DNA of 14,114 nucleotides from contig CAYVSA010000036.1 of NCBI GenBank assembly GCA_964454175.1, positions 1-14,114 of the forward strand, in the 5' to 3' direction. The notes beneath the pieces were generated by a model, which saw only the letters and a program-made list of their open reading frames with translations, was not told the DNA's origin and did not search any database. Source of the DNA: an uncultured Pseudomonadota bacterium. Lineage in GTDB: Bacteria; BMS3Abin14. Every line of letters begins with the position of its first letter. The stretch's first letter is position 1. Positions 1 to 14,114 of this stretch are shown one piece after another. The translations under genes were made by a program, and so were the position numbers.

Positions 1-786
1 GTTAAAGCCCATGGCGTATGCGATGAGCTCCGCGATCTTCTGGATGGCGGCATTCTCGATATCAACCTTGGAAACCTTCCTGATGATCTGAAAGACAATG
101 ATCATCAGTGCCGGACCAGAGCAGAAGGCCGATGCTAAAAATCGCGGTGCCAGGATGGAAGCGTTCCAGAATGGCCTTGCAGGAAGACCGTTGTACAGGA
201 AGGCCGTCACAGTGTGGATACTCACAGCCCAGGGTATCGATATGATCACCAGGGGCTTAACGACCGCCATGCTGTATTCCATATTGTGGGCTATCCTGTA
301 CATTACGTACAGGACGATGGTCAGGTTCAAGAACAGATATCCGTTAAGGACGATAACATCCCAGGCCAGCAGCGATGATGGGAAATTCATCGTTCCTAAA
401 AACGGCAGCAGATGCCATGCCCTCTCAGGCCGCCCTATATCCACAACGATGAAGAGTATGCACATGGAGATGGCGGTGATGGCCATGATCTCACCGAAAA
501 GTACGATCTCCTTGATGGGCTTGAAATTGTAAATATACGCTGGGATGACGAGAAGGACAGCCGCAGCGGCCACTCCCACCAGGAACGTGAAGTTCGACAG
601 GTAGAGGCCCCAGGAGACCGGATCCCTCATGGCCGTTACAATGAGGCCATTCTTGAGCTGCATTACATAAGTGCCCGCCCCGACAAGTATGATAGTGGAA
701 AGGAATCCCACCCATAAATAGTAATTTCGGGAACCCTTCACGACCTCTCTGGCGGTGATCATAAAATTCTTTATCAGATAAAACAT
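1..786 (-). CDS. NrfD/PsrC-family integral membrane quinone-interacting subunit, DsrP/CbcU-like (3' end runs off the window)
   Basis: Not in the ORF track because it has no stop in the window. Manual translation from ATG at 786 is open to base 1: MFYLIKNFMITAREVVKGSRNYYLWVGFLSTIILVGAG...MRDPVSWGLYLSNFTFLVGVAAAAV...DIGRPERAWH...SLLAWD...SIPWAVSIHTVTAFLYNGLPARPFWNASILAPRFLASAFCSGPA. WGLY, DxGRPxR and WAVSIHTVTAF..RFLASAF are NrfD/DsrP-type motifs. AAGGGG SD lies upstream, and the gene follows an Fe-S partner. Confidence 0.92.
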   Translation of the reverse strand, partial: MFYLIKNFMITAREVVKGSRNYYLWVGFLSTIILVGAGTYVMQLKNGLIVTAMRDPVSWGLYLSNFTFLVGVAAAAVLLVIPAYIYNFKPIKEIVLFGEIMAITAISMCILFIVVDIGRPERAWHLLPFLGTMNFPSSLLAWDVIVLNGYLFLNLTIVLYVMYRIAHNMEYSMAVVKPLVIISIPWAVSIHTVTAFLYNGLPARPFWNASILAPRFLASAFCSGPALMIIVFQIIRKVSKVDIENAAIQKIAELIAYAMGFN

Positions 787-801
787 AAGCGACCCCTTAA
801 C

Positions 802-1734
802 TCACGTTGCGAAGAAGTAGTAGAATTTGGGATTAGTGCCCACATCTTCCTTGAGCCTGAAAACGCGCTTGTTCTGGATGCAGTACCTGATCTCGCTGTT
901 CGGGTCCAGAAGGTTTCCGAACTTCCTGGCGCCCACAGGGCAGATCTCAACACAGGCTGGATACTGCCCGTGTTCTTTCCTGGTCCTCTGTATGCAGAAC
1001 GTGCACTTTTCAACTACACCCTGCATCCTCGGGCGGTTTCCAAGATAGTGTGTGTTTGTGTTGATCTCCTCGTCGGATATATTGGGAGCCGCCCAGTTGA
1101 AATGCCTCGCCCCGTATGGGCAGGCAGCCATACAGTATCTGCAGCCGATGCACCAGTTGTAATCGACGACGACTATCCCGTCGTCTTCCTTCCAGGTGGC
1201 GCGGGTGGGACAAGCTCTGACGCAGGGCGGTTTTTCGCACTGCTGACACTGGGTGGGCATGTAAAAGTGCTCCTCTTCAGGAACAGTTTCAGGATTGTAG
1301 TACTTGTCCGCATTTTCGAGGTCACTAACCCACTTGCCGCCCTTCTTGAACTGGAGCACCTGTATCCAGTGGACCTGGGGGTCCCTTGACTGATTATTTT
1401 CCTTTACGCATGCATACACACATCTTCGGCATCCTATACACCTGGAAATATCAAGGCCGTAGCCGAAAAGCACTCCCGGAGTCGGGCCTTCGGTGCCCAC
1501 CTTGAACTCTTTTCCGTATTTTTTCGAGTACTCGCCTTCCAGCCTTTTTATTACCGCATCACGCTCCCCGGCATTCATCTCCGTGAAGTGCTTCTGGAAG
1601 AAGGCTTCCCACACAGAGGCAGCAGCATCCTTCGCTGGAACCGACAGTGCGGCCGCACCCAGGGCTGTACCCTTCAGGAATGACCGCCTGCTGAGTCTGT
1701 TCCCACAATGCTGTGGATCGCTCTTTTTTTTCAT
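802..1734 (-). CDS. Tat-exported 4x[4Fe-4S] electron-transfer subunit (NrfC/DsrO/CbcT-like)
   Basis: Twin-arginine signal SRRSFLK plus a hydrophobic stretch. Four Cys groups: CIGCRRCVYAC, CQQCEKPPCVRACP, CIGCRYCMAACP, CTFC...PACVEICP. C-terminal GTNPKFYY is typical of the family. Confidence 0.95.
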   Translation of the reverse strand: MKKKSDPQHCGNRLSRRSFLKGTALGAAALSVPAKDAAASVWEAFFQKHFTEMNAGERDAVIKRLEGEYSKKYGKEFKVGTEGPTPGVLFGYGLDISRCIGCRRCVYACVKENNQSRDPQVHWIQVLQFKKGGKWVSDLENADKYYNPETVPEEEHFYMPTQCQQCEKPPCVRACPTRATWKEDDGIVVVDYNWCIGCRYCMAACPYGARHFNWAAPNISDEEINTNTHYLGNRPRMQGVVEKCTFCIQRTRKEHGQYPACVEICPVGARKFGNLLDPNSEIRYCIQNKRVFRLKEDVGTNPKFYYFFAT

Positions 1735-1747
1735 ATTATTGGAACCT

Positions 1748-2302
1748 CTACTTTATGTATGCGGGTTTGATGGGTGGCGGCATCGGTTTGATAGGCTTGA
1801 AGCGCGGCTGATGGGGATAGTGACACTGTACACACAGTCTGTAGAGCTTCTTGCCGTTCCACTCACCGGTCCTTTTGCCGTGGATGCCGGCCTTCCAGTC
1901 CCTGAATATGGTACCGTGGCACTGACCGCAAAGGAGATACGACTCCTCGAAACTGATCAGTTTGCCGCTAGCAAGACGGAGCATGTCTCTGTTGTCGGGG
2001 TTATGGCAGTCAAGACACCATCTATTCTCCTCGTCATGATTGACAAGTTTTATCTCTTCGTGAAACTCGGTGAGTTCGCGTCTCTCTGGATTGACATCCA
2101 TATCGTCGTGGCAGTCTGAACAGGGGAATATGTCTTCGGAAAAAGGCGGGGGGGTGACGAAAAACTCCGGGATCTTGTGTTTGATGATCGCTACTTCAGA
2201 TTTCCCGCCTGACTTCCCCTTCTCATGCTGGGCCAGTGAGGGTGAGGAGACAACCATGATCAAAGCCATGGCTGTGTATACTGCTGCTGACAACTTTTTC
2301 AT
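1748..2302 (-). CDS. Periplasmic tetraheme c-type cytochrome (CbcS-like position in the module)
   Basis: Four CxxCH motifs (CSDCH, CLDCH, CGQCH, CVQCH). Start moved from 2392 to the ATG at 2302 (MKKLSAAVYTAMALIMVVSSPSLA-Q, a Sec signal peptide), which is preceded by GGGGAAGGAG. 184 aa. Confidence 0.92.
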   Translation of the reverse strand: MKKLSAAVYTAMALIMVVSSPSLAQHEKGKSGGKSEVAIIKHKIPEFFVTPPPFSEDIFPCSDCHDDMDVNPERRELTEFHEEIKLVNHDEENRWCLDCHNPDNRDMLRLASGKLISFEESYLLCGQCHGTIFRDWKAGIHGKRTGEWNGKKLYRLCVQCHYPHQPRFKPIKPMPPPIKPAYIK

Positions 2303-2317
2303 AACGCTCCTTCCCCG

Positions 2318-2336
2318 AATCATTATGATAATAATC
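2318..2336. promoter_or_regulatory. Fur-box-like (nAT)n operator just upstream of the cytochrome RBS
   Basis: AATCATTATGATAATAATC matches the 19-bp Fur consensus GATAATGATAATCATTATC at 13/19 and contains the palindrome ATCAT-T-ATGAT. Confidence 0.35.
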
Positions 2337-2425
2337 GGCATTGCCGTAGGTATCAGAAAGGTTGAATTGATAAGTTGTTTTACCACGCCCAACCGTAAAA
2401 TACAGGCCTATTTTCCAAAGTGCGT

Positions 2426-2454
2426 ATCTTAAACTTGACCAAATTAATTGTAAA
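2426..2454 (-). promoter_or_regulatory. Sigma70-type promoter for the cytochrome/Fe-S/NrfD module
   Basis: Minus strand TTTACA (2454-2449), 17-nt spacer, TAAGAT (2431-2426), with a T-rich UP-like tract upstream. Confidence 0.6.
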
Positions 2455-2490
2455 GAAAAAATTGGGTGGAGAGGCAGAGGATCAGATAAA

Positions 2491-2600
2491 GTTCCAGGTT
2501 CCAGGTAAAGTTGAAAGTTCAAGGTAGAAAGCTGAAAGATCTGGGCCTTGGGACCTGGGACTGAAGCAAAGCGACAAAGGACTGGAGCAAAGCGATACCA
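2491..2600. repeat. Heptamer-periodic intergenic array A, including a 15-bp hairpin stem and a 21-nt-period duplication
   Basis: GTTCCAG x2, then 13 consecutive in-phase 7-mers starting with G from 2510: GTTGAAA GTTCAAG GTAGAAA GCTGAAA GATCTGG GCCTTGG GACCTGG GACTGAA GCAAAGC GACAAAG GACTGGA GCAAAGC GATACCA. Confidence 0.8.
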
Positions 2601-2622
2601 TAAACCAGGTAGAATATCAGAC

Positions 2623-4389
2623 CTAACTCTCTTTACGATGCCAGCGCCCGAGGATCACGGAGCCCAGCGCGGCGGCTATTCCAAAGGAAAGGACCGAGAG
2701 GACGAGTGGCACACCGCTGGCGCTTAACAGGTCTATGAGGAATACCTTCAGGGCTCCGATCACAGTCACCAGTATGGCGACCGATCTGATCTCGTAGTCT
2801 TTCCTCGAATATGCCTTCAGGATCAGCCCTACTGCCCCAAGGTTGATAATAATGGACTGAGCGCAGGTAAAAGCGTTGGCAATGTCCCCCTTCATCCCGG
2901 AAAGGATCCAGTAAACACCGGTCCTTGCCGTGAAAAAGGCGCCAAGGAGGGAGGCGAAAAGGACAAGCAGGGCACTTCGGTCCCTTTTGTCGAAACGGAC
3001 GAAATATCCTGACTGCGCTGCTGGAGGACGTCTGCGGCTGAGCTTGAAGTGCGAGAATGTCACTACAGTGAAAAGACCTGCGGAAACCATCCCAACCGGT
3101 AATGACATTCCCTTGACTGAAAATACGCCAATGCCCGCAGCAGCGATTATTACCGTAATTTGTATCAGATAGGATGTGATCCTGACTGCATCTTTATCCC
3201 ATTTCCCTGACAGCATCAGGTATCCCAGCCCGAGCGCAGATATTACCGGCAGTGCGAATAAAGCGTCACTGAATACAAGGGGCAGGGACAGTGCAAAAAG
3301 ACAGGCAGCGGGGAAGGCAAAACTGTTAACACCCTCGCCTTCTGTCTCCGTTCGCATGGCCAGAAATACTGCGACAGCAGATAAACCTGCCCACAGGATG
3401 ATCCCGGCTGCTCCGAGCACGACAACCCTTCCACCCGAAGAAGCAGCGACAACCCAGGCAAAAATGAATATCAGAACTGAAGCGAGGGTAGGCAGCAGAT
3501 CGTTGTAGAGGCGCGCATTTTCAGGCCTGAACCGGATGGTGGAAAGGAGGGCGGTGGAAATGTAATAAACCAGGAAAAGCACGAGGATAGGGAAAAACCA
3601 GCCGATATAAAGCGCTGCAGGAACATCATCACCCCGTCTCAGGACAACGGAGAGCTTGAATGCCCAACTGCCCATAACGAATATTGTCACGAAAAAGGCA
3701 AAGATCCTCAGCCACCAGCACCTGGAAATGTTCAGGGCTGTGTAAGTAATAACATTGACAAAAAGGAGTACGAGACACAGGTAGGGTATTATCGGGTCTG
3801 GAAAGTCAAGGGGAAGTGCAGTGACTACAATCCCGAGAGCGGCAACAGTCACCGGCACCGCTACTTTCTGCCACCTGCTGACAGTGGTTAGAACAGTTCC
3901 TGCTATCATCAGCATGGGATAGGCGGTCAGTGATGAGAGGGCACCGAAATGGGCGTGAGTCTCCAGGACTACGGTAAAGAGCAGAAGCGCTCCGCTGATG
4001 GCAAATATGGGGGCTGCCGGACTGGACCTTCTGTAAAGAAGCCAGCCCCCGGCGATCAGGATCCAGGCATAGCTGATCCCCAGCACGGAACCGAACTGCA
4101 TTCCAACGAACCCATTGTCGGTAAGTGTTCTGAGGATCAGGGCAATAACCAGGAGAAAACAGATTGTTGCAATGCGGGACAGGATGGCCGTCATGCCCCC
4201 CATGGTCCAGAGTCTCTCTCGGGGGTCTGCTTCTCTTGATCCCCGCGTGCTCCGAGGACTCTTACCAGCTGTTTTCCCCTGAGCCAGGCCAGGGGAGGAT
4301 TCGAGAACATCCACACGACGCTTGAGAGTCCTTACCTGGGAAGCAAGTTCTTCGACCTTTGTCTCGAGGCCCTTTCTCTCGTCAACCAA
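2623..4389 (-). CDS. Polytopic membrane protein, DUF2339-like (~18 TM helices, N-terminal coiled coil)
   Basis: 588 aa. N-terminal heptad segment LETKVEELASQVRTLKRRVDVLE, a low-complexity linker, then about 18 hydrophobic segments counted by eye. The C-terminal LKVFLIDL motif is typical of DUF2339. TTG start with GGAG upstream. Confidence 0.75.
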   Translation of the reverse strand: MVDERKGLETKVEELASQVRTLKRRVDVLESSPGLAQGKTAGKSPRSTRGSREADPRERLWTMGGMTAILSRIATICFLLVIALILRTLTDNGFVGMQFGSVLGISYAWILIAGGWLLYRRSSPAAPIFAISGALLLFTVVLETHAHFGALSSLTAYPMLMIAGTVLTTVSRWQKVAVPVTVAALGIVVTALPLDFPDPIIPYLCLVLLFVNVITYTALNISRCWWLRIFAFFVTIFVMGSWAFKLSVVLRRGDDVPAALYIGWFFPILVLFLVYYISTALLSTIRFRPENARLYNDLLPTLASVLIFIFAWVVAASSGGRVVVLGAAGIILWAGLSAVAVFLAMRTETEGEGVNSFAFPAACLFALSLPLVFSDALFALPVISALGLGYLMLSGKWDKDAVRITSYLIQITVIIAAAGIGVFSVKGMSLPVGMVSAGLFTVVTFSHFKLSRRRPPAAQSGYFVRFDKRDRSALLVLFASLLGAFFTARTGVYWILSGMKGDIANAFTCAQSIIINLGAVGLILKAYSRKDYEIRSVAILVTVIGALKVFLIDLLSASGVPLVLSVLSFGIAAALGSVILGRWHRKES

Positions 4390-4419
4390 ACTCTATTCTC
4401 CAATTCCCAATGCTCTAAT

Positions 4420-4482
4420 GTTCCCTGCCTCTTGCCCATAGCCCCTAGCCTACAGCTTACAGCCTATAGCCAGTCGCCTGCC
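4420..4482. repeat. Heptamer array C (GCCTAYA-like)
   Basis: GTTCCCT GCCTCTT GCCCATA GCCCCTA GCCTACA GCTTACA GCCTATA GCCAGTC GCCTGCC, all in 7-nt phase. Confidence 0.8.
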
Positions 4483-4518
4483 CTGAGTCACGCCATAGGC
4501 GTGATCGAAGGGCCTTTT
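4480..4518 (+). repeat. REP-like palindrome/hairpin immediately after the large cytochrome stop codon
   Basis: GCCCT-GA-G-TCACGCC-ATA-GGCGTGA-T-C-GA-AGGGC: a perfect 7-bp inner stem and a 5-bp outer stem joined by tandem G.A pairs, followed by CTTTT on the + strand. Confidence 0.7.
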
Positions 4519-4520
4519 GT

Positions 4521-6371
4521 CTAATTAAACTCATGACAGTCAGCGCAGAAATCGCCCGCGTTGTGGTCTTCCTTGTCATCGTGGCACTGGTAGCAGGTCT
4601 CCCGACTGTCAACGACCCAGCGGTGCCTGACGTGACAGGTGGTGCAGTCCTCCCCGGCGTGGTCTTCTACCTCGATATGAAGACCGGTCAGATCATCGTG
4701 ACACTCCGTACAGTCAATAACCGGTCTGACTTTCTGCTCGTCAAGATGGCAGTCGTAGCAGTCGAAAGTACCCATTCCAATATCAGAAGGATGGCCGCCG
4801 TCCTCGACACCTTTTTCCTCATGACAGGTCCCGCAGTCTTTGGAGGGCGGTATCCCGCCGGAGTGACACCTGCTGCAGTTCATTTCGGCGTGTTTTCCCT
4901 TCAGGTCCCAGGGGTGGAAGGATTCCCAGTTCTCGCCTTCCGGGTACCCCTCGGCCCAGTGTTTGGATGGTCCCCTCTCGGGCATCGTGTGGCAGATCAC
5001 GCATTCACGCCTGATTGTCTTTCCATCCTCACTGACATGCCTGCCGTCGTGGCACCTGAAGCAGCCGGGAAAGTCACGATGACCGATATTATCGGGATAC
5101 TCCTTCCACGAAACCTTCATGTCCGGGAAGAAGTTTTTACTGTAGATATGCTTGATCATATCAACCGCTTTGTCGATATCCTTGATGCGGCTCACTGCCA
5201 ATTCCGGGTAGCTGCTCTTATAGAAGTCCTTTATACTCTTCTCGATAGCAGCGTAGGCACTCTCCCTTGACTCGTAATCTGCTACCAGGACGTTGACACC
5301 GATCTTCTTTATATAGGGTAATGATACATCTATGACGCCTTCAAGAAGGGCCCTGTCCATGCTCTCCTGAGGTGACCTGTAGTTGTGCGTCGGCCTGTTG
5401 TGGCATACAACACAGTCAACCAGCCGTGCGTCTTCGGACTCATGGCCCCCTTCGAGCTCCCCTTCCCAACCCTGAAGCTTGTATTCTATGACTTTGCCAT
5501 CGGGAAACTCCTCCCAGACGAAGGGAATTACCTGAAGACCGGGGTCAGCTGCCGCAAAGGTGACATTTTTTTCCGCCAGCATGTGCCAGTGGATGCCCGA
5601 ACCACCCTCTTCGGTATCGTCGCCTCCACCGATCTTTACGAGCATCGAGATGTCATGGGGCGTGTTTTTCTCGTCAAAGCTGTAGTGGGTCTTCACCCTC
5701 AGCTTGCTTCCGTAGAACTTGGCCGGCCAGTGACACTCCTCGCACGTCTCCCTGGCGGGCCTCAGGTGCTGAATCGCGGGAGGTATGGGTTTAGGGTAGC
5801 TGTTGAGCAGCACAGCGAACATCTGCCGCGTTCCGGCAAGCTTCGATTTCACGTACCACCCGGCCCCTGGTCCAACGTGGCACCTTGCACAGGTCACACG
5901 GGCGTGGGCGGAGTTCTGCGAGGCGGTGGCCTCGGGCTCCATGACCGAGTGGCAGAGTTCGCCGCAGAAGGTCAGGGATTCAGTGAAATGATATGCCTCA
6001 TAAGCAATAACAGTCAGGAGGAGCGCCGCTACGACCATCGTCGCCACGAAAATAAAGAACCGCAGTCTATGGACACCCAGATTGAGGTCAAGGATCGGAA
6101 ATCGGGGAATATCGGCATCAATGTGCTTCCTTCGCCTGTTGTGTTCATCCCACATTCCCCAGGCAAAAAGTAAAAATCCTGCCATGAAAAATATTGGCAG
6201 GATGAAGAACAGCAGCACCCCCAGATACGGTGAGTGCGTTGTTCGAAGCATGTCGATTATCAGCAATACTACAATGAAAAGTGCCGTCAGCGCGGACATA
6301 CCCAGACCGAGGTAACTCAGCGGGTTGCGCCACAGGCCCCGTTGAATAAACCGTGTCTTTTCGTCGGTCAT
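4521..6371 (-). CDS. imcH: ImcH-like inner-membrane multiheme cytochrome c (NapC/NirT-type quinol dehydrogenase domain) with a C-terminal multiheme extension; 13 heme motifs
   Basis: Three N-terminal TM helices. NapC/NirT motif FCGELCHSVMEPE...SAHARVTCARCHVGPGAGWYVKSKL and LRPARETCEECHWPAKF resemble Geobacter ImcH as I recall it. One CX3CH plus 12 CxxCH. Start placed at the ATG at 6371 (MTDEK), after a strong AGGAGGGGGG SD. 616 aa. Confidence 0.85.
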   Translation of the reverse strand: MTDEKTRFIQRGLWRNPLSYLGLGMSALTALFIVVLLIIDMLRTTHSPYLGVLLFFILPIFFMAGFLLFAWGMWDEHNRRRKHIDADIPRFPILDLNLGVHRLRFFIFVATMVVAALLLTVIAYEAYHFTESLTFCGELCHSVMEPEATASQNSAHARVTCARCHVGPGAGWYVKSKLAGTRQMFAVLLNSYPKPIPPAIQHLRPARETCEECHWPAKFYGSKLRVKTHYSFDEKNTPHDISMLVKIGGGDDTEEGGSGIHWHMLAEKNVTFAAADPGLQVIPFVWEEFPDGKVIEYKLQGWEGELEGGHESEDARLVDCVVCHNRPTHNYRSPQESMDRALLEGVIDVSLPYIKKIGVNVLVADYESRESAYAAIEKSIKDFYKSSYPELAVSRIKDIDKAVDMIKHIYSKNFFPDMKVSWKEYPDNIGHRDFPGCFRCHDGRHVSEDGKTIRRECVICHTMPERGPSKHWAEGYPEGENWESFHPWDLKGKHAEMNCSRCHSGGIPPSKDCGTCHEEKGVEDGGHPSDIGMGTFDCYDCHLDEQKVRPVIDCTECHDDLTGLHIEVEDHAGEDCTTCHVRHRWVVDSRETCYQCHDDKEDHNAGDFCADCHEFN

Positions 6372-6385
6372 ATTACCCCCCCTCC

Positions 6386-6505
6386 TGGAGTAACTATTCA
6401 CAAGTTAAAGCTTTTTAATATGGGACTTGATCTGTGCTATTTTGCACAATACTTCGACTTCGTCAAGTATAATCATGGCAACAACAGTAGAGAAGTTTTT
6501 CACAA
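6386..6505. promoter_or_regulatory. Three Rex/CRP-like 18-bp operator boxes plus a putative sigma70 promoter upstream of the imcH-like gene
   Basis: 6386-6403 TGGAGTA-ACTA-TTCACAA, 6432-6449 CTGTGCT-ATTT-TGCACAA (core palindrome TGTGC-N6-GCACA) and 6488-6505 TAGAGAA-GTTT-TTCACAA, compared with Rex consensus TTGTGAA-N4-TTCACAA. Minus-strand TTGACG-16-CAAAAT overlaps the middle box. Confidence 0.5.
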
Positions 6506-6645
6506 GCTCCATATACGCTATTTTTCTCTATTTTTTGGGGATTTTTACAGATACACACCTTTAAACAGGCATTAAAAGTGTATTAAGTGAAAATCAACAG
6601 GTACTGAATAATTGTCAGTTTACAACCCTACATCTATTAAAAAAA

Positions 6646-6792
6646 GTTGAAAGTTGAAGGTTGAAAGTTGAAGGTTGAAGGTTAGGGCCTTGAACGGAGT
6701 CCCGGGACCCATGTCCCATGAACAATTGTCAATAATCCAATATCCAAATCGATGGTTGACCTTGGACCTTGGACCAGGGACCTTGGACACCG
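6646..6792. repeat. Heptamer array B (GTTGAAR x5 ... GACCTTG-like x5)
   Basis: GTTGAAA GTTGAAG GTTGAAA GTTGAAG GTTGAAG GTTAGGG (6646-6687); GTCCCGG GACCCAT GTCCCAT GAACAAT (6699-6726); GACCTTG GACCTTG GACCAGG GACCTTG GACACCG (6758-6792). Confidence 0.9.
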
Positions 6793-6807
6793 GCATAAGA
6801 CCGGCAG

Positions 6808-6840
6808 GCGAGGGATCGAACCAGGATCCCTGCATTTTTT
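6808..6840 (+). terminator. Intrinsic-terminator-like hairpin oriented on the + strand
   Basis: AGGGATC-GAACCAG-GATCCCT is a perfect 7-bp stem (6811-6831), extendable by GC/GC, followed by ATTTTTT. The U-tract is on the strand opposite to all flanking genes. Confidence 0.55.
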
Positions 6841-6883
6841 GTATCTCTTACCTGAATATCACCAACTAATTGGGAGATGATCC

Positions 6884-6950
6884 CTAATTTCTAATGCTCC
6901 AATTTCCATTTTCCACTTCACCACCCCGACACTCCCTTACCCCCTTACCT
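6884..6950. repeat. Hepta/octamer array D directly after the cimA stop
   Basis: CTAATTT CTAATGC TCCAATT TCCATTT TCCACTT, then 8-mers CACCACCC CGACACTC CCTTACCC CCTTACCT. Confidence 0.6.
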
Positions 6951-8562
6951 ACAAAACCCTCCCCGCCTCTTCCTCTCTGAGAAGCTTGTACTCAATGGAA
7001 TCAACCAGTGCCTGCCAGGAGGCTTCGATGATGTTGTCAGACACACCCACGGTCGACCACTTACTATCCTGGTCTCCCGACTCGATGATGACCCGGGTCA
7101 CAGCTGCAGTTCCCTTGCCCTCTGGCAGAATCCGGACCTTGTAATCGAGGAGCCGGATATCGTCCACAACCGGGTAGAACTTGGTAAGGGCTTTTCTCAG
7201 GGCCGCGTCCATCGCATCCACCGGGCCCTGGCCTACAGCAGCCGTGTGCTCTGTATTCCCATCCACGACAACCATGATCGTAGCCTCAGCGAGGGGGGGC
7301 TTGTCCCACTGCCTCTTTTCATCGATCACCCTGAAACCTTTCAGTTCGAAGAAACGCCGGTGCATCCCCAGTGCTTTTTTCAGAAGAAGCTCAAAGGAAG
7401 CTTCGGCCGATTCGTACAGGAAGCCCCTGTTCTCCAGGTCCTTTATCTGCTCCAGAACTTCTGCTATGGCGGGGTCTTTCTCATCAACCTCCACGCCGAA
7501 CTGCCTGGCTTTGTATATGACGTTGCTCCTGCCGGAGAGGTCGGAGAGGAGGACTCGCGTTGCATTGCCGACCGTTTCCGGCCTGATATGCTCATAGGTC
7601 TCTCTGTTCCTCTGCATAGCTGAAACATGAACACCGCCCTTGTGGGCAAAGGCGCTGCGCCCGACGTAGGGCTGGTGAGAATACGGTATCATGTTGGCTA
7701 TTTCTGCGATATTGCGGGACACCTCCCTCAGCCTGGCCATCTGCTCGCTGCCGATGTTGGTCGTAAGTCCCATTTTCAGAGAGACGGCCGGTATTATGGA
7801 ACACAGGTTCGCGTTGCCGCACCGCTCACCCCAGCCGTTAATGGTGCCCTGTACGTGCCTTCCGCCCAGTTCCAGGAGCACGAGGGAATTGGCTACCGCG
7901 CACTCCGAATCGTTGTGCATGTGGGCACCGATCTGCGAATCGGGAAGCTGTTTATTGACCGCATTAACTATCTCCAATATCTCTCCGGGCATGCAGCCGC
8001 CATTTGTGTCGCACAGGACGAGACAATCAGCACCGGCTTCGTCCGCAGCTTTGAGCGTATCGATGGCGTAATCGGGATTATCCTTATATCCGTCAAAGAA
8101 GTGCTCGGCATCATAAAACACCACATCTGCGTTCGCTTTCAGGAAGGCAACAGAGTCGTTGATCATCTCGAGGTTCTCCTCGAGAGTTGTCCGCAGCGCC
8201 TCGGTGACGTGAAGGTGCCAGCTCTTGCCGAAGATCGTCACGACCTCGGCAGCTTTCAGGAGCGCCTGGATCTGGGGATCGTCTGCGGCCTTGATCCCTT
8301 TTCGGCGTGTAGACCCGAAAGCGGCGATCCTGGCGTTGGACAGGGAAAGCCTTTTGGCTTCATCGAAAAAATCCATGTCCTTGGGGTTGGAACCGGGCCA
8401 TCCGCCCTCAATAAAGTCAACTCCAAGCTCATCAAGTCTGTGGGCAATGGTGACCTTGTCGGCAAGCTGAAGGCTGATCTCCTCAGCCTGCGTCCCATCC
8501 CTGAGTGTTGTATCGTATATGACGACTTTTTCCCTACCCGCTGATTTTTTTCTGGCAACCAT
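6949..8562 (-). CDS. cimA: Citramalate synthase (bacterial type; LeuA/CimA family)
   Basis: [49 protein letters not shown] and AFAHKGGVH motifs, plus a C-terminal regulatory domain ([33 protein letters not shown]). Adjacency to lysC is typical of this subfamily. Confidence 0.92.
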
Positions 8563-8597
8563 TTTATAACCTGCCTGTCTTTTCCGTTAATGGACCC

Positions 8598-9083
8598 TCA
8601 GACGGTTTCAGCGCCCAGGTCGAAGGTTTCGTGCAGGATTCGCACTGCAAGCTCCGTGTACTTGCTCTCAATTATGCAGGAGACCTTGATCTCGGAGGTG
8701 CTTATCATCATGATGTTGATCCCCTCACCGGCAAGTGCCTCGAACATGGTGGCTGCTATGCCCGAATGGCTTCTCATCCCTGTGCCCACAATGGAGACCT
8801 TGGACACCTTGTCATCAGTAATTATCTCCTGAGCCTCGATGTCTTTGCTGACTTCCTCGATAATGTCCACGGCCCGGGTGAGATCCGATTTGGTCACGGT
8901 AAAAGTAAGGTCCGTGAAGCCATCAACACTGATATTCTGTATGATCATGTCGACATTGATATTAGCAGCTGCGATGGGACCGAATATCTTGGCAGCTATG
9001 CCAGGTTTGTCGGGAACTCGGAGGATAGCCACTTTCGCCTCATTCTTGTCGTAGGACACTCCCGAAACCTTTACCTTCTCCAT
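8598..9083 (-). CDS. lysC: Aspartate kinase beta (regulatory) subunit from an in-frame internal start at Met247
   Basis: AGGGAGG-AAAATTCC-ATG lies inside lysC exactly at the kinase/ACT boundary (...[13 protein letters not shown]), giving 161 aa. The same arrangement is established for B. subtilis AKII and C. glutamicum LysC. Confidence 0.7.
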
Positions 9084-9821
9084 GGAATTTTCCTCCCTTG
9101 TCACCCATGTTCCCTCGTTGACTGAAAATGTGGAACGCACGTGTATGGGGACATCATAGTTTTTCGCAAACTCAACGGACCTGATCTGCAGGACTTTTGC
9201 GCCAAGACTGGACATCTCGAGCATCTCGTCATAAGAGATCCTGTCTATCTTCCGTGCTGAAGGAACGAGGTTGGGGTCTGTCGTAAAGATACCTTCAACG
9301 TCAGTGAATATTTCGCAAACATCCGCGTTCAGGGCAGCTGCCATGGCAACTGCAGAGGTATCCGACCCTCCCCTGCCCAGAGTTGTTATGTCTCCCTCGT
9401 CGTTGACGCCCTGGAAACCAGCTATTACAACCACCCTGCCGGCTTTCAGGTGCCCCAGGATCGTCCCGCTGTCTATTTTCCTGATACGCGCCTTCTCGTG
9501 GGCTGAGTCAGTGTAAACCGCAACCTGAGGCCCCGTCATCGAAACTGCATCCACACCCATGGATTTTAGAGTCATGGCCAGGAGGCCGATGGTTACCTGT
9601 TCACCTGTGGACACCACAACGTCGTATTCCCTGGGATCCGGCCTGGGGGTGATTGATGTGCAGAAATCCACCAGTTTGTTGGTCTCGCCAGCCATGGCCG
9701 AAACAACAACTACAATGTCGTTTCCTTCGTCACGGCCGCTTTTTATCCGTTCGGCGACCGTTCCAATCATTTCCACATCGGCAACGGATGTTCCACCGAA
9801 CTTTTTGACTACCAGTGCCAT
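8598..9821 (-). CDS. lysC: Aspartate kinase (monofunctional, two ACT domains)
   Basis: [33 protein letters not shown] and ACT repeats ([27 protein letters not shown]). Confidence 0.97.
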
Positions 9822-9870
9822 TACGACCCCCGTTGATGTCCTTGTTGAAAAAGTGTTTTCGGCTCACACT

Positions 9871-11136
9871 TCAAAAGTTAAAGTTCCAGTTTATAAGGCT
9901 CCCCATGAGTTCGTGGCCCTTTGGATATTTGATCCCTGTGAGCGCAGCGTTACTTTCTGAATAGGCCAATCCGGAGCCCGCCGCCTTCGAGGATGTGTCC
10001 AGCGCCGCAAAGGGAACAGGCTCATCAGAATGTGTTTTTATCTCCAGGGGAGTGGCGTGGTCGGGCAGCACCATCAGCCTGCATCGACCCGCCCTGGGAA
10101 GACCTTTCAGAACCCTTCCTACAACCATGGAGTCAAAATCCTCGATGGCCTGTATTTTATCCCGGAGCGAGCCGCCGTGAGACGCCTCATCCGGTGCCTC
10201 TACATGAACGTACACAAGGTCAACTTTCTCCAGAGCTTTGAGCGCCGCATCCGCTTTACCCTCGTAATCCGTGTCCAGATAGCCGGTTGCGCCGGGGACA
10301 TCTATCACATCCAGGCCCAGAGACACGCCTATCCCCTTCAGCAGATCAACTGCCGTGATGATAGCTCCGGTTTTGCCGTAGCTCTCGGCAAAGGAAGGGA
10401 GTCGCGGGCGCTTACCCTGGCCCCAGAGCCAGATGCAGTTAACAGGAGGCCGGCCGTTTTTTTTCCTTACTCTGTTCACGGGGTGATCTGCAAGCAGTGA
10501 CACAGCTCTTTCCATGAGGCCAATGACTTTTCCAGACGCGGGCCCCATGGGCCAGCCCTCACCAATGGCCCGGTCAGTAAGGTCATGGGGCGCCTCAACC
10601 GTGAGGTTCTCATTACCACCTCTCCAAACGAGCAGGTGTCTGTACGACACCCCGGTGTGGAGCTCGACACCCTCTGAGGCGAGTCCATCAGCCAGTGTGT
10701 CAACGATAGATCTGGCCTCTTCATCGGATGGGTGGCCTGCAGCAAAATCAACCATCACGAGATCCTGCTTCAGTTCGTCCGCAGGTATTTCGGTGATAAT
10801 GGAGCTTCCATTACGGACCCCCAGTGTAACGAGGTTGCACCTGAATGCTACATCGTCTGCAGCCATGCTGACACCCATCCCGGCCGCCTCCAGGGGGGAC
10901 CTGCCCGTGTATATGGCAGCGGGGTCATATCCCAGGACCGACAGGTTAGCTATGTCGCTTCCCTTGACCATGCCATCCGGGATAGTTTGAGCAAGGCCCA
11001 GCACTCCGCCAGAGGAAATTGTGTCCATATTGGGCGTCTTTGCGGCCTCAAGGGGAGTCCTGCCGGAAAGGTCAGAAAGGGGCCTGTCAGCCATACCGTC
11101 CCCCAGCAGTATCAGGTATTTACAACTGCTGCTCAT
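9871..11136 (-). CDS. apgM: Cofactor-independent phosphoglycerate mutase family protein (ApgM type; proposed homoserine kinase subfamily)
   Basis: GDGMAD, TPLEAA.TP.MD, GSDIANLS (Ser nucleophile), GRSPLEA, GATGYLDTDY, HVEAPDEASH and PDHATP motifs. Start placed at the ATG at 11136, overlapping the hom stop (ATGA). Confidence 0.9.
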   Translation of the reverse strand: MSSSCKYLILLGDGMADRPLSDLSGRTPLEAAKTPNMDTISSGGVLGLAQTIPDGMVKGSDIANLSVLGYDPAAIYTGRSPLEAAGMGVSMAADDVAFRCNLVTLGVRNGSSIITEIPADELKQDLVMVDFAAGHPSDEEARSIVDTLADGLASEGVELHTGVSYRHLLVWRGGNENLTVEAPHDLTDRAIGEGWPMGPASGKVIGLMERAVSLLADHPVNRVRKKNGRPPVNCIWLWGQGKRPRLPSFAESYGKTGAIITAVDLLKGIGVSLGLDVIDVPGATGYLDTDYEGKADAALKALEKVDLVYVHVEAPDEASHGGSLRDKIQAIEDFDSMVVGRVLKGLPRAGRCRLMVLPDHATPLEIKTHSDEPVPFAALDTSSKAAGSGLAYSESNAALTGIKYPKGHELMGSLINWNFNF

Positions 11137-12455
11137 GTGATCTCTTCCCACGGGATCATACGCATGAGAAAACTGCCGCCCAGTACTGCGTCGTTTGTAT
11201 CTATTTCCTTGAGAGCCTCCACCATGGAGGAAAAAGCAGCCTCATGTGTCAGCATGAAAAGGGGAACTCCCCTTCCCTCTTCACCCTCTCTACCCCTCTG
11301 GATCACTGAGGCTATACTGATGCCGTGGGCTCCGAGGATCCCTGATACAGATGAGAGAACCCCCGGCTGGTCGTGGGCATTTATCCGCACGTAATACTCA
11401 CTCAGGGTGTTCTCCACCAGAGATAGTTCTTTTCCGTTATCTTTACCCTGCATGAAACCAGCTACCGGTACCCGCCCTACTGCACCAGAAAGGATGTCCC
11501 GGGCACAGGATATTATGTCTGCGACCACCGCACTTCCCGTGGGCATGCTTCCCGCGCCGCGTCCATAGTAAAGTGAAGGCCCCAGATTATCGTCCTGGAC
11601 GTAAACTGCATTGAACACCCCATCCACTGCACTGAGGGGGTGGCCATAGGGGACCAGGGTCGGGTGTACCCAGGCTTCAACACCCTCCTTCACGCGGGAC
11701 GCCGAAGCAATGAGCTTGACGCAATAGCCGAACTCATCCGCCATTTCCAGGTCCAGAGGCGTGATGCTCGAAATCCCCTGATAGGGGAGAACGCCCGGCG
11801 AAACAGGCGCGTTAAAACACAGGTTAGCCAGTATGGACAGCTTCTGGGCCGCATCAGTACCCTCCACATCCATAGATGGGTCCGATTCTGCGTAGCCTTT
11901 TTCCTGGGCCTCCTCCAGCACCTCGCTGAACTCCTTGTTTTCCCGTTGCATGCGCGTCAATATGTAGTTGCACGTACCGTTGATTATTCCAGTGACGGAC
12001 TTGATCCTGTTGGCCACCAGGCCCACCTTCAGGGTCCTGATCAGCGGGATGCCGCCGGCGACACTCCCCTCAAATCCCAGAACGACCTGTCTGTCCTCTG
12101 CCGCACTTACGATCTCGGACCAGTGAGCAGCAAGGAGGGCCTTGTTGGCGGTGACGACATGCTTGCCAGCTCCCATTGCCTCCAGTATGAGGCCTCGGGC
12201 CGGCTCAATGCCCCCGATGAGTTCCACGACTATCTCCACCTCGGGATCATTCACCACATCCTCGGCCTTGGTGGTCAGGACTCCCGACTCCAGGCCCGAG
12301 GACTTGAGACGGCCCTCATCGAGGTCAGCAGCACGCACAACCTTAATGGGCGCGCCAAGGCGGCTCTCCAGAAGGTTCCCGTTCTCCTTCAGGATCCGGA
12401 GTGTTCCATTGCCGATGGTGCCGAGACCTATGATCCCGACCCTGACAGGTCTCAT
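11133..12455 (-). CDS. hom: Homoserine dehydrogenase with C-terminal ACT domain
   Basis: GLGTIG Rossmann motif, VVELIGG, HVVTANKA, EGSVAGGIP, GIINGTCNYIL, GYAESDP..DVEG.DAAQK, YGRGAG..PTGSAV, and ACT domain DQPGVL. Confidence 0.97.
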   Translation of the reverse strand: MRPVRVGIIGLGTIGNGTLRILKENGNLLESRLGAPIKVVRAADLDEGRLKSSGLESGVLTTKAEDVVNDPEVEIVVELIGGIEPARGLILEAMGAGKHVVTANKALLAAHWSEIVSAAEDRQVVLGFEGSVAGGIPLIRTLKVGLVANRIKSVTGIINGTCNYILTRMQRENKEFSEVLEEAQEKGYAESDPSMDVEGTDAAQKLSILANLCFNAPVSPGVLPYQGISSITPLDLEMADEFGYCVKLIASASRVKEGVEAWVHPTLVPYGHPLSAVDGVFNAVYVQDDNLGPSLYYGRGAGSMPTGSAVVADIISCARDILSGAVGRVPVAGFMQGKDNGKELSLVENTLSEYYVRINAHDQPGVLSSVSGILGAHGISIASVIQRGREGEEGRGVPLFMLTHEAAFSSMVEALKEIDTNDAVLGGSFLMRMIPWEEIT

Positions 12456-13546
12456 CAGCTTACCTTTCCAACTCCTTCAGCCACAAGATCGCCCATGGCT
12501 GAGCAGGAGACCAGACTGCATCCTTCACTCATGATGTCACCCGTGCGGTAGCCATCTTCCAGTACATTTTCCACAGCCTTCCGGACGGTTTCGGCGGCTT
12601 TATCGGCACCACAGGTTATCTCCAGCATCATGGCAACAGAAAGGATCGTCGCCAGTGGATTTGCTTTATCCTCACCCGCGATATCCGGTGCGCTCCCGTG
12701 GACCGGCTCATACATGGCACACTGCTCCCCCAGACTGGCCGATGGCAGCATTCCGATAGACCCGGTCAGCATGGCTGACTCGTCGGAGAGGATGTCGCCG
12801 AACAGGTTCCCGGTGAGGATCACGTCGAATTGGGACGGGTTCCTGATAAGCTGCATGCTGCAGTTGTCTACGAACATGTGGTTGAGCTCGATATTCGGGA
12901 AGTCCGCAGCTACTTCAAGGACAACTTCACGCCACAGACCGCTCACCTCCAGAACGTTAGCTTTGTCTACGGACATGACCTTGCCCCGTCTTCGGCCGGC
13001 AGCTTCAAAGGCCACCCTCGCCACCCTGGCGATCTCGCCTTCTGAGTAGAACATGGTGTTGAAGCCTTCACGACCCGCATCGGTGGTTCGCCTGCCCCTG
13101 GGCTCACCAAAGTAGATGTCCGATACCAGCTCCCTCACAACCAGGAGGTCTATTCCGGAAACCACTTCGGGCCGGAGAGTAGATGCATCAACGAGGGGTT
13201 TGTGAACCTGGGCCGGCCTCAGGTTTGCGAACATATCAAGTATCTGTCGCAGGGCGAGGAGGCCCTTTTCCGGACGCTTGTCTGTGGGCAGGTCGTCCCA
13301 CCTGGGACCGCCAACAGCCCCGAGAAGTACCGCATCTGCCTCCCTTGCAGCCTGAATAGTCGCCTCTGACACCGGAGAACCCTCTGCTTCGATCGCAGCC
13401 CCGCCTACGAGGGCCTTTGAGAGTTTGAACTCGTGTCCGAAAATATCGCCGACTGCAGCAAGCACTTTCACTGCCTGGGCTGTAACCTCGGGGCCAATAC
13501 CATCGCCTTCCAGTACAAGTACGTCAAAGCTGTTTCCTGCGCTCAT
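12455..13546 (-). CDS. leuB: 3-isopropylmalate dehydrogenase
   Basis: [64 protein letters not shown] overlap with hom. Confidence 0.97.
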
Positions 13547-14046
13547 TTACCGGTCTCCTTAAGTACATAGGGTATCAGCCCTCCTGCTTCGATAAGCTCC
13601 ATCATAAAGGGAGGGAACGGTTCTGCCTTGTGCTCTGAGCTTCTCGTAATATTCCTGATCACACCAGATGAAGCGTCCACTTCCAGTTCGTCACCGGTGG
13701 TGATCTCTGCTGAGGCCCGGGCAGATTCAAAGATAGGAAGACCCATGTTAAAAGAGTTGCGGTAGAAGATCCGCGCAAAAGATGCCGCTATCACGCAGGA
13801 CACACCTGCCGCTTTGATGGCTATTGGTGCGTGCTCCCTGGAGGATCCGCAGCCGAAGTTCTTTCCGCCAACGATAATATCCCCGGCAGAAGCCCTGGAG
13901 GAAAAATCAGGATCAGCGTCTTCCATACAGTGTTTTGCCAGTTCGCCCGGATCGGATGTATTCAGGTACCTCGCCGGGATGATGGCGTCCGTGTCCACAT
14001 CGTCCCCGAAACGCCAGGCGCGGCCTTTGAATTTTGCTTCGTTCAT
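13543..14046 (-). CDS. leuD: 3-isopropylmalate dehydratase small subunit (short, type-2 LeuD)
   Basis: [38 protein letters not shown] and GGL motifs. AAAGGAG SD. ATGA overlap with leuB. Confidence 0.95.
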
Positions 14047-14114
14047 TTAATCTCCTTTGATTCCTTACACCCAATACAATAAATCATTCATTTCCTGTCC
14101 CGCAGGGTAGTCCC

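Follow-up and report, generated by a model that had tools for sequence, protein, structure and literature searches.

The window analysed here is a stretch of contig CAYVSA010000036.1 (14,114 nucleotides, positions 1 to 14,114 of the forward strand; assembly GCA_964454175.1), from an uncultured Pseudomonadota bacterium of the GTDB lineage BMS3Abin14, and its first 6,371 nucleotides hold a cluster of electron-transfer genes headed by an ImcH-type multihaem cytochrome. All long open reading frames (ORFs) of the window lie on the minus strand. Five of them, in one orientation (4521-6401, 2623-4389, 1748-2392, 802-1734 and 1-786), encode the ImcH-type cytochrome, a polytopic membrane protein resembling the DUF2339 family, and a three-gene set, hereafter module A, consisting of a tetrahaem cytochrome c, an iron-sulphur (Fe-S) protein and an NrfD-family membrane subunit (NrfD_A) (Table 1). 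An earlier interpretation made from the letters alone, hereafter the sequence-only reading, had described five co-oriented genes with 17 c-haem motifs and four Fe-S clusters. Our gene calls and motif counts agree with it: haem motifs number 13 + 4 (16 canonical CXXCH and one CX3CH), and four Cys groups (16 Cys) are found in the Fe-S protein. The end coordinate given there for the locus corresponds to what is likely the true start of the ImcH-type gene, the ATG at 6371, downstream of an AGGAGG site; the tetrahaem gene likely starts at ATG 2302, downstream of GGAAGGAG. The intergenic distances among the five genes are 131, 320, 13 and 15 bp, and a tight operon appearance is limited to the tetrahaem, Fe-S and NrfD genes.

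Table 1. Genes and intergenic gaps at the ImcH-type cluster (positions in the window).
Feature	Position	Strand	Details
13-haem ImcH-type inner-membrane cytochrome	4521..6371	-	616 aa from ATG 6371 (likely start); ORF open to GTG 6401
DUF2339-like polytopic membrane protein	2623..4389	-	588 aa
Tetrahaem cytochrome c, module A	1748..2302	-	184 aa from ATG 2302 (likely start)
TAT-exported Fe-S protein, NrfC/DsrO type, module A	802..1734	-	310 aa, four [4Fe-4S] motifs
NrfD-family DsrP-like membrane subunit, module A	1..786	-	N-terminal 262 aa; rest on C107:2-598
Gap, ImcH-type/DUF2339-like	4390..4520	.	131 bp; (AGCCTAC)n heptamer array at 4447-4471
Gap before tetrahaem gene	2303..2622	.	320 bp; heptamer arrays GTTCCAG, AAAGTTG; one promoter-like site
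Gap, citramalate synthase/ImcH-type gene	6372..6948	.	577 bp, AT-rich; arrays AAAGTTG, GACCTTG, AATTTCC; promoter-like site 6466-6439

Base 1 of the window is a contig end, and the NrfD gene is therefore truncated. The first 115 bases are shared, with 97% identity, by the terminal part of contig C107, the NrfD reading frame runs on into C107, and the DsrP model of NCBIfam is split between the two contigs, with 325.9 bits on C36 (model positions 3-233) and 130.5 bits on C107 (197-343). Since the same genes also stand in one row in a single-contig relative (G001), C107 can be taken to continue the locus. It adds the rest of NrfD_A, a 227-aa repeat protein, an anchored tetrahaem cytochrome, a second Fe-S protein exported by twin-arginine translocation (TAT) and a second NrfD protein. 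The last three make up module B, in which the tetrahaem cytochrome has a membrane anchor at residues 6-31 followed by a linker and 4 CXXCH, the TAT-exported Fe-S protein finds its best NCBIfam match in TtrB (215 bits against a cut-off of 416), and the NrfD protein (NrfD_B) has 406 aa. The gene order of the cluster is thus ImcH-type 13-haem cytochrome, DUF2339-like protein, module A, repeat protein and module B; in G001, a histone-deacetylase-family gene and then a ComEA-like gene come after module B. The sequence-only reading had seen no catalytic molybdenum, nickel or flavin subunit, and we detected none within the cluster or, in G001, among the genes directly after it. Its count of two quinone-interacting systems, on the other hand, has to be raised to three with the second tetrahaem/Fe-S/NrfD module; the inspection beyond base 1 that it had recommended thus led to this module and not to a conventional catalytic enzyme. 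The repeat protein between the modules (C107:1046-1729, plus strand) contains six or seven W[LV][LF]xS[ED]xLxEE[PQY] repeats and has no Pfam or NCBIfam match. It has an orthologue at L018:14460-15059; six members of the family keep it at 30-38% identity, and none of the 80 ImcH loci from other lineages contains it.

The large cytochrome begins with three hydrophobic transmembrane (TM) segments (27-56, 55-85 and 108-137 by hydropathy), carries one CX3CH motif right after TM3 (CGELCH, residues 146-151) and continues with 12 CXXCH; all 13 haem sites are invariant across an alignment of 22 homologues. Pfam NapC/NirT (PF03264) was matched at 28.7 bits against a cut-off of 24.1, and a search of the PDB returned the NrfH chain 2j7a_C (E 7.3e-5, residues 109-249) and nothing beyond NrfH. 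Identity to Geobacteraceae proteins of 494-520 aa with one CX3CH and six CXXCH is 41-43% over residues ~5-516, and the proteins of Oryzomonas japonica Red96, Geomonas oryzae S43 and Geobacter sp. OR-1 (494-510 aa) align end to end with residues ~20-516, their seven motifs in register. The first 516 residues are homologous to these Geobacteraceae ImcH-type proteins, which are of ImcH size and fit the published description, GSU3259 itself being set beside them by description only. In the available text of that description, ImcH has three N-terminal TM helices, a CX3CH beside the TM domain and 5-9 CX2CH, the Geobacter forms being 495-519 aa long (PMC6295460). A preprint names, in the portion available, conserved residues E127, K173 and Y188 of ImcH (10.1101/2023.05.03.539133); by a constant offset, we would guess that these correspond to the invariant E141, K187 and Y202 here, the position of Y202 reading W, F or Y in the Geobacteraceae alignment rows.

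Calling this protein an extended ImcH was apt, as six extra haems follow the homologous part. The C-terminal hexahaem extension (residues 517-626; 110 aa, 6 CXXCH) contains 28 acidic and 8 basic residues, and eight further His and one Met are invariant in the last 196 residues of the protein, where they might suffice as distal ligands for the nine haems; an AlphaFold2 model of these 196 residues was unusable (pLDDT 45.4). The extension is common to forms from metagenome-assembled genomes (MAGs) of Acidobacteriota, Deferrimicrobiaceae and Polyangia. Among the best 120 protein-cluster matches, 114 are full-length at 597-629 aa, and the 13-haem form is therefore common in metagenomes. The 2018 survey, as far as its available text goes, lists ImcH homologues with 6-10 haem motifs (PMC6295460), and we found no paper pairing ImcH with 13 haems. 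In one relative, G002 (L019:11337-11945), the ImcH-type gene next to the DUF2339-like gene is reduced to its C-terminal part (residues 423-626) and NrfD_A to ~60 residues, which points to a rearrangement or an assembly error.

Between the ImcH-type protein and module A lies the protein that the sequence-only reading had described as having ~18 TM segments between two membrane systems, and its AlphaFold2 model (pLDDT 81.2, pTM 0.73) indeed shows 18 long TM helices, preceded by an N-terminal helix (2-31) and a disordered linker (34-66). Because its PF10101 (DUF2339) match reaches only 28.9 bits, under the cut-off of 33.6, and covers only the last ~110 residues, "DUF2339-like" is the right wording. 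Homologues numbered 15, of which 12 carry a precomputed PF10101 label, and the nearest ESM Atlas cluster is 67% PF10101. Across 19 sequences, the polar residues R87, T88, E143, D470, N516 and D553 are invariant and no His or Cys is conserved; haem or Fe-S binding by this protein thus appears unlikely. Foldseek of the model against the PDB gave nothing at E <= 0.001, and the best rows of a wide fold search were designed helical-repeat toroids (Z 16.8, root-mean-square deviation 12.4 over 394 residues), which is the usual range for helical repeats. We accordingly assign no fold to this model and claim no fold novelty. A search for fused or longer forms found none, which is weak evidence, and the literature mentioning DUF2339, as judged from its listing, includes nothing on respiration.

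Signals for export to the periplasm are seen in two proteins of module A. The tetrahaem cytochrome (4 CXXCH; Pfam Cytochrome_C7 and Paired_CXXCH) has a single hydrophobic segment at 6-24 that resembles a Sec-type signal peptide, and the Fe-S protein matches Pfam Fer4_11 and TAT_signal, with the ArrB-type chain 6cz7_B and PsrB (2vpw_B) as PDB matches. NrfD_A belongs to PF03916 (E 2.7e-37), and its closest solved chains are the ActC chains of alternative complex III (ACIII; 6f0k_C, E 2.2e-10). For either tetrahaem cytochrome, the PDB held nothing significant and no CbcS-like chain that matched. The C-terminus of the module A cytochrome (1748-1810) is Pro-rich and basic, with the pattern P[RKH]FK[PS][IL]xPxPPPxxP in 13/13 orthologues examined, which come from four lineages (the window's family, Geobacter MAGs, a Syntrophus MAG and an Acidobacteriota MAG). 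The sequence-only reading had proposed that an acidic ImcH tail docks this basic tail. Docking of this kind is disfavoured by the alignments, in which the acidic "tail" proves to be a haem-dense domain and the basic tail is kept just as well next to ImcH genes of the short 7-haem form, which have no acidic extension. A binding partner inside module A would be at least as plausible. In one relative, G003 (L023:5262-7207), an insertion of ~1.9 kb separates the Fe-S gene of module A from its NrfD gene.

Whether the units are co-located in related genomes had been set beforehand as a test of the locus, and the arrangement was found to be kept in the window's family, where contigs allow, and in the Geobacter family. 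Within the window's family (15 other genomes searched, with 45 genomes of other families for contrast), the DUF2339-like gene occurs in 12/15 relatives against 1/45 of the contrast genomes. Among the 11 relatives' loci examined, it is followed by module A in 8, with module B next in 6 of these, and relative G005 has ImcH, the DUF2339-like gene and module B without module A. ImcH adjoins the DUF2339-like gene in 7 of the 11, and a further three loci are cut by contig ends no more than 500 bp from the latter gene. Synteny at this depth proves little by itself, since the genes for aspartate kinase and citramalate synthase are likewise kept in place. A scan of genome contigs with the ImcH-type protein, from which the best 80 of 597 relatives were kept, gave 78 ImcH loci outside the window's family, a best-scoring subset in which many loci are cut by contig ends. 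Of these, 14 contain a module-B-type Fe-S/NrfD pair (42-49% identity for its Fe-S protein), 9 a DUF2339-like gene (36-39%) and 5 module A (55-67% for its Fe-S protein), the loci with modules belonging to Geobacter/Geomonas, Syntrophus, "Deltaproteobacteria" and Acidobacteriota records. Among the named strains, Geomonas oryzae S43 and Geobacter sp. OR-1 carry a module-B-type unit next to imcH. In a Syntrophus MAG (L084:15349-16110), the module-B-type cytochrome has 8 CXXCH (253 aa) instead of 4.

The association is closest in a sample of 121 genomes representing the family of one Geobacter MAG. ImcH was found in 81 of them, the NrfD_B type in 62, the DUF2339-like protein in 52 and a DsrP-like protein over the cut-off in 28. 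Genomes with the DUF2339-like protein nearly always carry NrfD_B (49/52) and ImcH (51/52), and all 28 DsrP-like genomes also carry the DUF2339-like protein. When the genes share a contig, they are neighbours: 38 of 39 pairs of DUF2339-like and NrfD_B genes lie within 10 kb (26 within 300 bp), all 43 pairs of DUF2339-like and ImcH genes within 10 kb, and 45 of 46 pairs of NrfD_B and ImcH genes within 15 kb. The NrfD_B profile was also run on five ImcH-bearing genomes of this family that lack the cluster. It matched nothing in two of them and a single gene, weakly, in each of the other three (E ~4e-11); two of these weak matches, read in context, are a distant NrfD gene beside a large CXXCH-free protein and an Fe-S protein. 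In G051, from an unrelated family, a tetrahaem, an Fe-S, an NrfD and a DUF2339-like gene form a unit by themselves, flanked by a chorismate-binding enzyme gene on one side and relA/uvrB on the other. An order of Acidobacteriota (101 genomes; ImcH in 86, the NrfD_B type in 30, both in 28) behaves differently: the two genes share a contig in only 3 of the 28 and lie within 15 kb in 2. The expectation that the neighbourhood is conserved is thus borne out by the Geobacter family and not by the Acidobacteriota order; the linkage is strong but lineage-specific.

Domain make-up, periplasmic targeting (by TAT, Sec or an anchor), the absence of a catalytic subunit and recurrent co-location are all observed features of the cluster. 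With function assigned from homology and neighbourhood, we consider it fairly probable that three cofactor-only oxidoreductases are encoded here, which connect the menaquinone pool with c-type cytochromes of the periplasm, and the units are most likely parallel quinone-pool/periplasmic-cytochrome oxidoreductases. In the ImcH-type protein, menaquinol would be oxidised at a site like that of NrfH, next to haem 1, and the electrons would pass along the 13-haem chain. In each NrfD module, four Fe-S clusters and four haems would form the path along which a quinone site and periplasmic cytochromes exchange electrons; protons may be coupled to this exchange, and the three routes could serve different potentials, partners or directions in the respiration of periplasmic or extracellular acceptors. 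For the DUF2339-like protein, which lacks redox-cofactor ligands, our best guess, from gene neighbourhood alone, is an accessory role in the membrane, as a partner for the NrfD_B-type module, ImcH or both. Taken together, the locus combines known module types, in a conserved and apparently undescribed arrangement, with an unstudied 18-helix membrane protein.

The genome background is compatible with extracellular respiration. The source genome contains 27 stop-to-stop ORFs with at least four CXXCH in 2.17 Mb, and 11 of the 20 multihaem ORFs scanned match DmsE/MtrA-family models at E <= 1e-8, none of them at the cut-off (best 163.7 against 192.2 bits). Elsewhere in this genome, a second NrfH-like membrane cytochrome with 10 CXXCH adjoins an 11-haem protein, and two multihaem proteins have an N-terminal ResA/thioredoxin-like domain (C1:29307-33013, C83:5371-6981 and C68:4666-6405 for the NrfH-like cytochrome and the ResA/thioredoxin-like proteins).

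Several observations weigh against the reading as parallel oxidoreductases. The direction of electron flow and a use in extracellular electron transfer (EET) are suggested by analogy, and the 131-bp and 320-bp gaps permit separate transcription. The single-contig relative G010 has no ImcH within 20 kb, gene order and orientation vary by lineage, with ImcH divergent from the modules in Geobacter loci, and related genomes are not independent while the profiles include Geobacter-family rows, so that the counts given above overstate independent support. The units could instead be independent respiratory modules that are merely adjacent, co-inherited or moved horizontally as an island, with no coupling and the DUF2339-like gene as a passenger. 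Such an island is a possibility that we take seriously, although we hold it doubtful. Separate gaps and variable order and orientation speak for it, as do G051, where the module B type and the DUF2339-like gene have no ImcH nearby, the 21 of 81 ImcH-bearing Geobacter-family genomes without the NrfD_B type, the lack of linkage in most of the Acidobacteriota sample, and the five carriers of the 13-haem form in which no DUF2339-like match was obtained. Between this lineage and the Geobacter MAGs, moreover, module A is 62-67% identical whereas ImcH reaches only ~42%, which suggests that parts moved horizontally. Mere adjacency fits less well with the spacing of the DUF2339-like gene in the Geobacter family, where, on shared contigs, NrfD_B is within 300 bp of it in two thirds of cases and ImcH within 10 kb in all, or with the recurrence of its association with NrfD in the unrelated family of G051.

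NrfD complexes with cytochrome c partners, such as Qrc and ACIII, run in either direction. The sequence-only reading had suggested a potential-switching or redox-loop hub. In a redox loop, the NrfD modules would work in reverse, like Qrc of Desulfovibrio, passing electrons to menaquinone from periplasmic cytochromes that obtain them from H2, formate, Fe(II) or a partner cell, and ImcH would re-oxidise the pool; we judge this unlikely. A loop would suit the co-location of a P-side quinol oxidase with NrfD modules seen here and the loci of DsrOP homologues with a tetrahaem cytochrome described for sulphur oxidisers in the available text of PMC13047784, but ImcH is reported, in the accessible part of a preprint, to be electroneutral (10.1101/2023.05.03.539133), and linkage is not universal, as the Acidobacteriota order shows. 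Still less likely, in our judgement, is that ImcH, both modules and the DUF2339-like protein form one respiratory unit, either a supercomplex or an obligate redox loop through the menaquinone pool, with the 18-helix cofactor-free protein as a new scaffold or ion-conducting subunit. A role of module A in dissimilatory sulphur metabolism, as the JOP part of DsrMKJOP, is extremely improbable. It is suggested by the best NCBIfam matches of the module A proteins, DsrO and DsrP, and by the full-length NrfD_A orthologue in G001 (L018:12837-14117), which exceeds the DsrP equivalog cut-off with 428.8 bits against 350. The source genome (G000, 98.5% complete), however, yielded no dsrA match, a best dsrB score of 19.1 bits against 341.5 and a best DsrK score of 64.6 bits against 400, and these searches refute DsrMKJOP membership unless Dsr genes lie in the unassembled ~1.5%. 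The module A cytochrome has four haems against the three of DsrJ, and no DsrJ match; the Fe-S protein falls just short of the DsrO cut-off (185.9 against 200 bits; QrcC 160.5 bits); and the module passes the DsrP cut-off in 28 of the 121 Geobacter-family genomes.

NrfD_A orthologues in G001 and in these 28 genomes score 425-474 bits with the DsrP equivalog model, and automatic annotation would probably call them DsrP wrongly. The cut-off of this NCBIfam model is passed in an organism in which no DsrA, DsrB or DsrK reaches its own.

The preferred reading, that of parallel oxidoreductases between the menaquinone pool and periplasmic cytochromes, bears on a well-studied pathway. EET in Geobacter has been shown to be gated by three quinol oxidases of the inner membrane, ImcH among them, and the membrane partners of ImcH are still sought; modules of the Cbc4 type and those with DsrOP homologues also await an assigned role. 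Co-location yields concrete, testable candidates for ImcH partners, as imcH with one or two modules and the DUF2339-like gene is seen in the Geobacter-family sample and in an unrelated deep lineage, and if the components did form one respiratory unit, the ImcH pathway of Geobacter relatives would have unrecognised partners. The cluster also gives a first genomic context for one DUF2339 subfamily, and its 13-haem form of ImcH, common in Acidobacteriota and Deferrimicrobiaceae MAGs, exceeds the range surveyed in the available text of PMC6295460.

The cluster is preceded in the window by housekeeping genes. The upstream citramalate synthase gene was confirmed by TIGR00977 (776.5 bits), and further housekeeping genes, named by reading their translations alone, are leuD, leuB, homoserine dehydrogenase, a phosphoglycerate-mutase-like gene and aspartate kinase. 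Promoter-like sites in the window number 7 against 6.0 +/- 2.5 in shuffles, which is no excess, terminator-like sites are likewise at shuffle level, and an Rfam search of the window matched no family. Tandem heptamer arrays occur in all three intergenic gaps (2491-2538, 4447-4471, 6643-6683, 6758-6788 and 6886-6915). As a locus-specific regulatory site they were rejected, being a genome-wide feature: Tandem Repeats Finder reported 1083 arrays at score >= 30 across the genome, 377 of them with period 7 and 122 different units. To our knowledge, genome-wide heptamer arrays resembling short tandemly repeated repetitive sequences are unusual outside cyanobacteria.

How far the locus is new depends on the level at which it is compared. 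The sequence-only reading had called it undescribed, which does not hold for its parts, as ImcH, DsrOP homologues with a tetrahaem cytochrome and the Cbc4 build are all known, and does appear to hold for their clustering and the DUF2339 link, on which we found no paper. In the literature searched, ImcH was likewise not connected with DUF2339 or with DsrOP homologues, although the figures or supplements of PMC6295460 and PMC13047784 may show such neighbours. ImcH itself is reported, in the accessible part of a preprint, to be the menaquinol oxidase for EET (10.1101/2023.05.03.539133). The large cytochrome resembles ImcH of Geobacter sulfurreducens (GSU3259), which serves extracellular acceptors of high potential, in its three N-terminal TM helices, the CX3CH beside TM3 and the NapC/NirT/NrfH-like first haems, and differs in having 13 haem motifs, six of them in an acidic C-terminal extension, compared with 7 in ImcH and 6-10 in the surveyed homologues (PMC6295460, available text).

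The modules share with DsrMKJOP, Qrc and ACIII the combination of an NrfD-family subunit, a periplasmic four-cluster Fe-S protein and a c-type cytochrome. Unlike DsrMKJOP, they are found in a genome with no DsrK or DsrAB above cut-off, and unlike Qrc and ACIII they have no molybdopterin-like subunit such as QrcB or ActB, the Fe-S protein of module A being only 310 aa long and the QrcC and QrcD scores of this module far under the cut-offs. Module A is closer to the DsrOhPh-tetrahaem locus of cable and other bacteria, where, in the available text, DsrOP homologues and a periplasmic tetrahaem cytochrome are encoded away from dsrMK, also in organisms that lack Dsr genes or sulphur metabolism, and a link between the quinone pool and periplasmic cytochromes is proposed (PMC13047784). 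By architecture, both have DsrO and DsrP homologues with a periplasmic tetrahaem cytochrome, here with gaps of 13 and 15 bp; the TMH1 gene described there is absent here, and the neighbours found here (ImcH, the DUF2339-like gene and the second module) are not mentioned in the text available of that paper.

Module B, compared by description and not by sequence, has the same three-part build as Cbc4 of G. sulfurreducens (CbcS/CbcT/CbcU, GSU0068-0070), which consists, according to the accessible part of the preprint, of an anchored tetrahaem cytochrome, a four-[4Fe-4S] protein and an integral membrane subunit (10.1101/2025.04.14.648717). CbcS is described there as having a 29-residue anchor followed by a linker, and Cbc4 is thought to be a quinone:cytochrome c oxidoreductase whose role is unknown (10.1101/2025.04.14.648717). 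The locus numbers of cbc4 and imcH are far apart in G. sulfurreducens, unlike the arrangement here. Finally, in the available text on Shewanella oneidensis, SirCD is an NrfC/NrfD-type quinol dehydrogenase without a catalytic subunit of its own that can replace CymA (PMC11434368). No dedicated tetrahaem subunit is described for SirCD in that text, unlike the modules here; by description, SirCD nevertheless offers a precedent for NapC-type and NrfCD-type routes working in parallel (PMC11434368).

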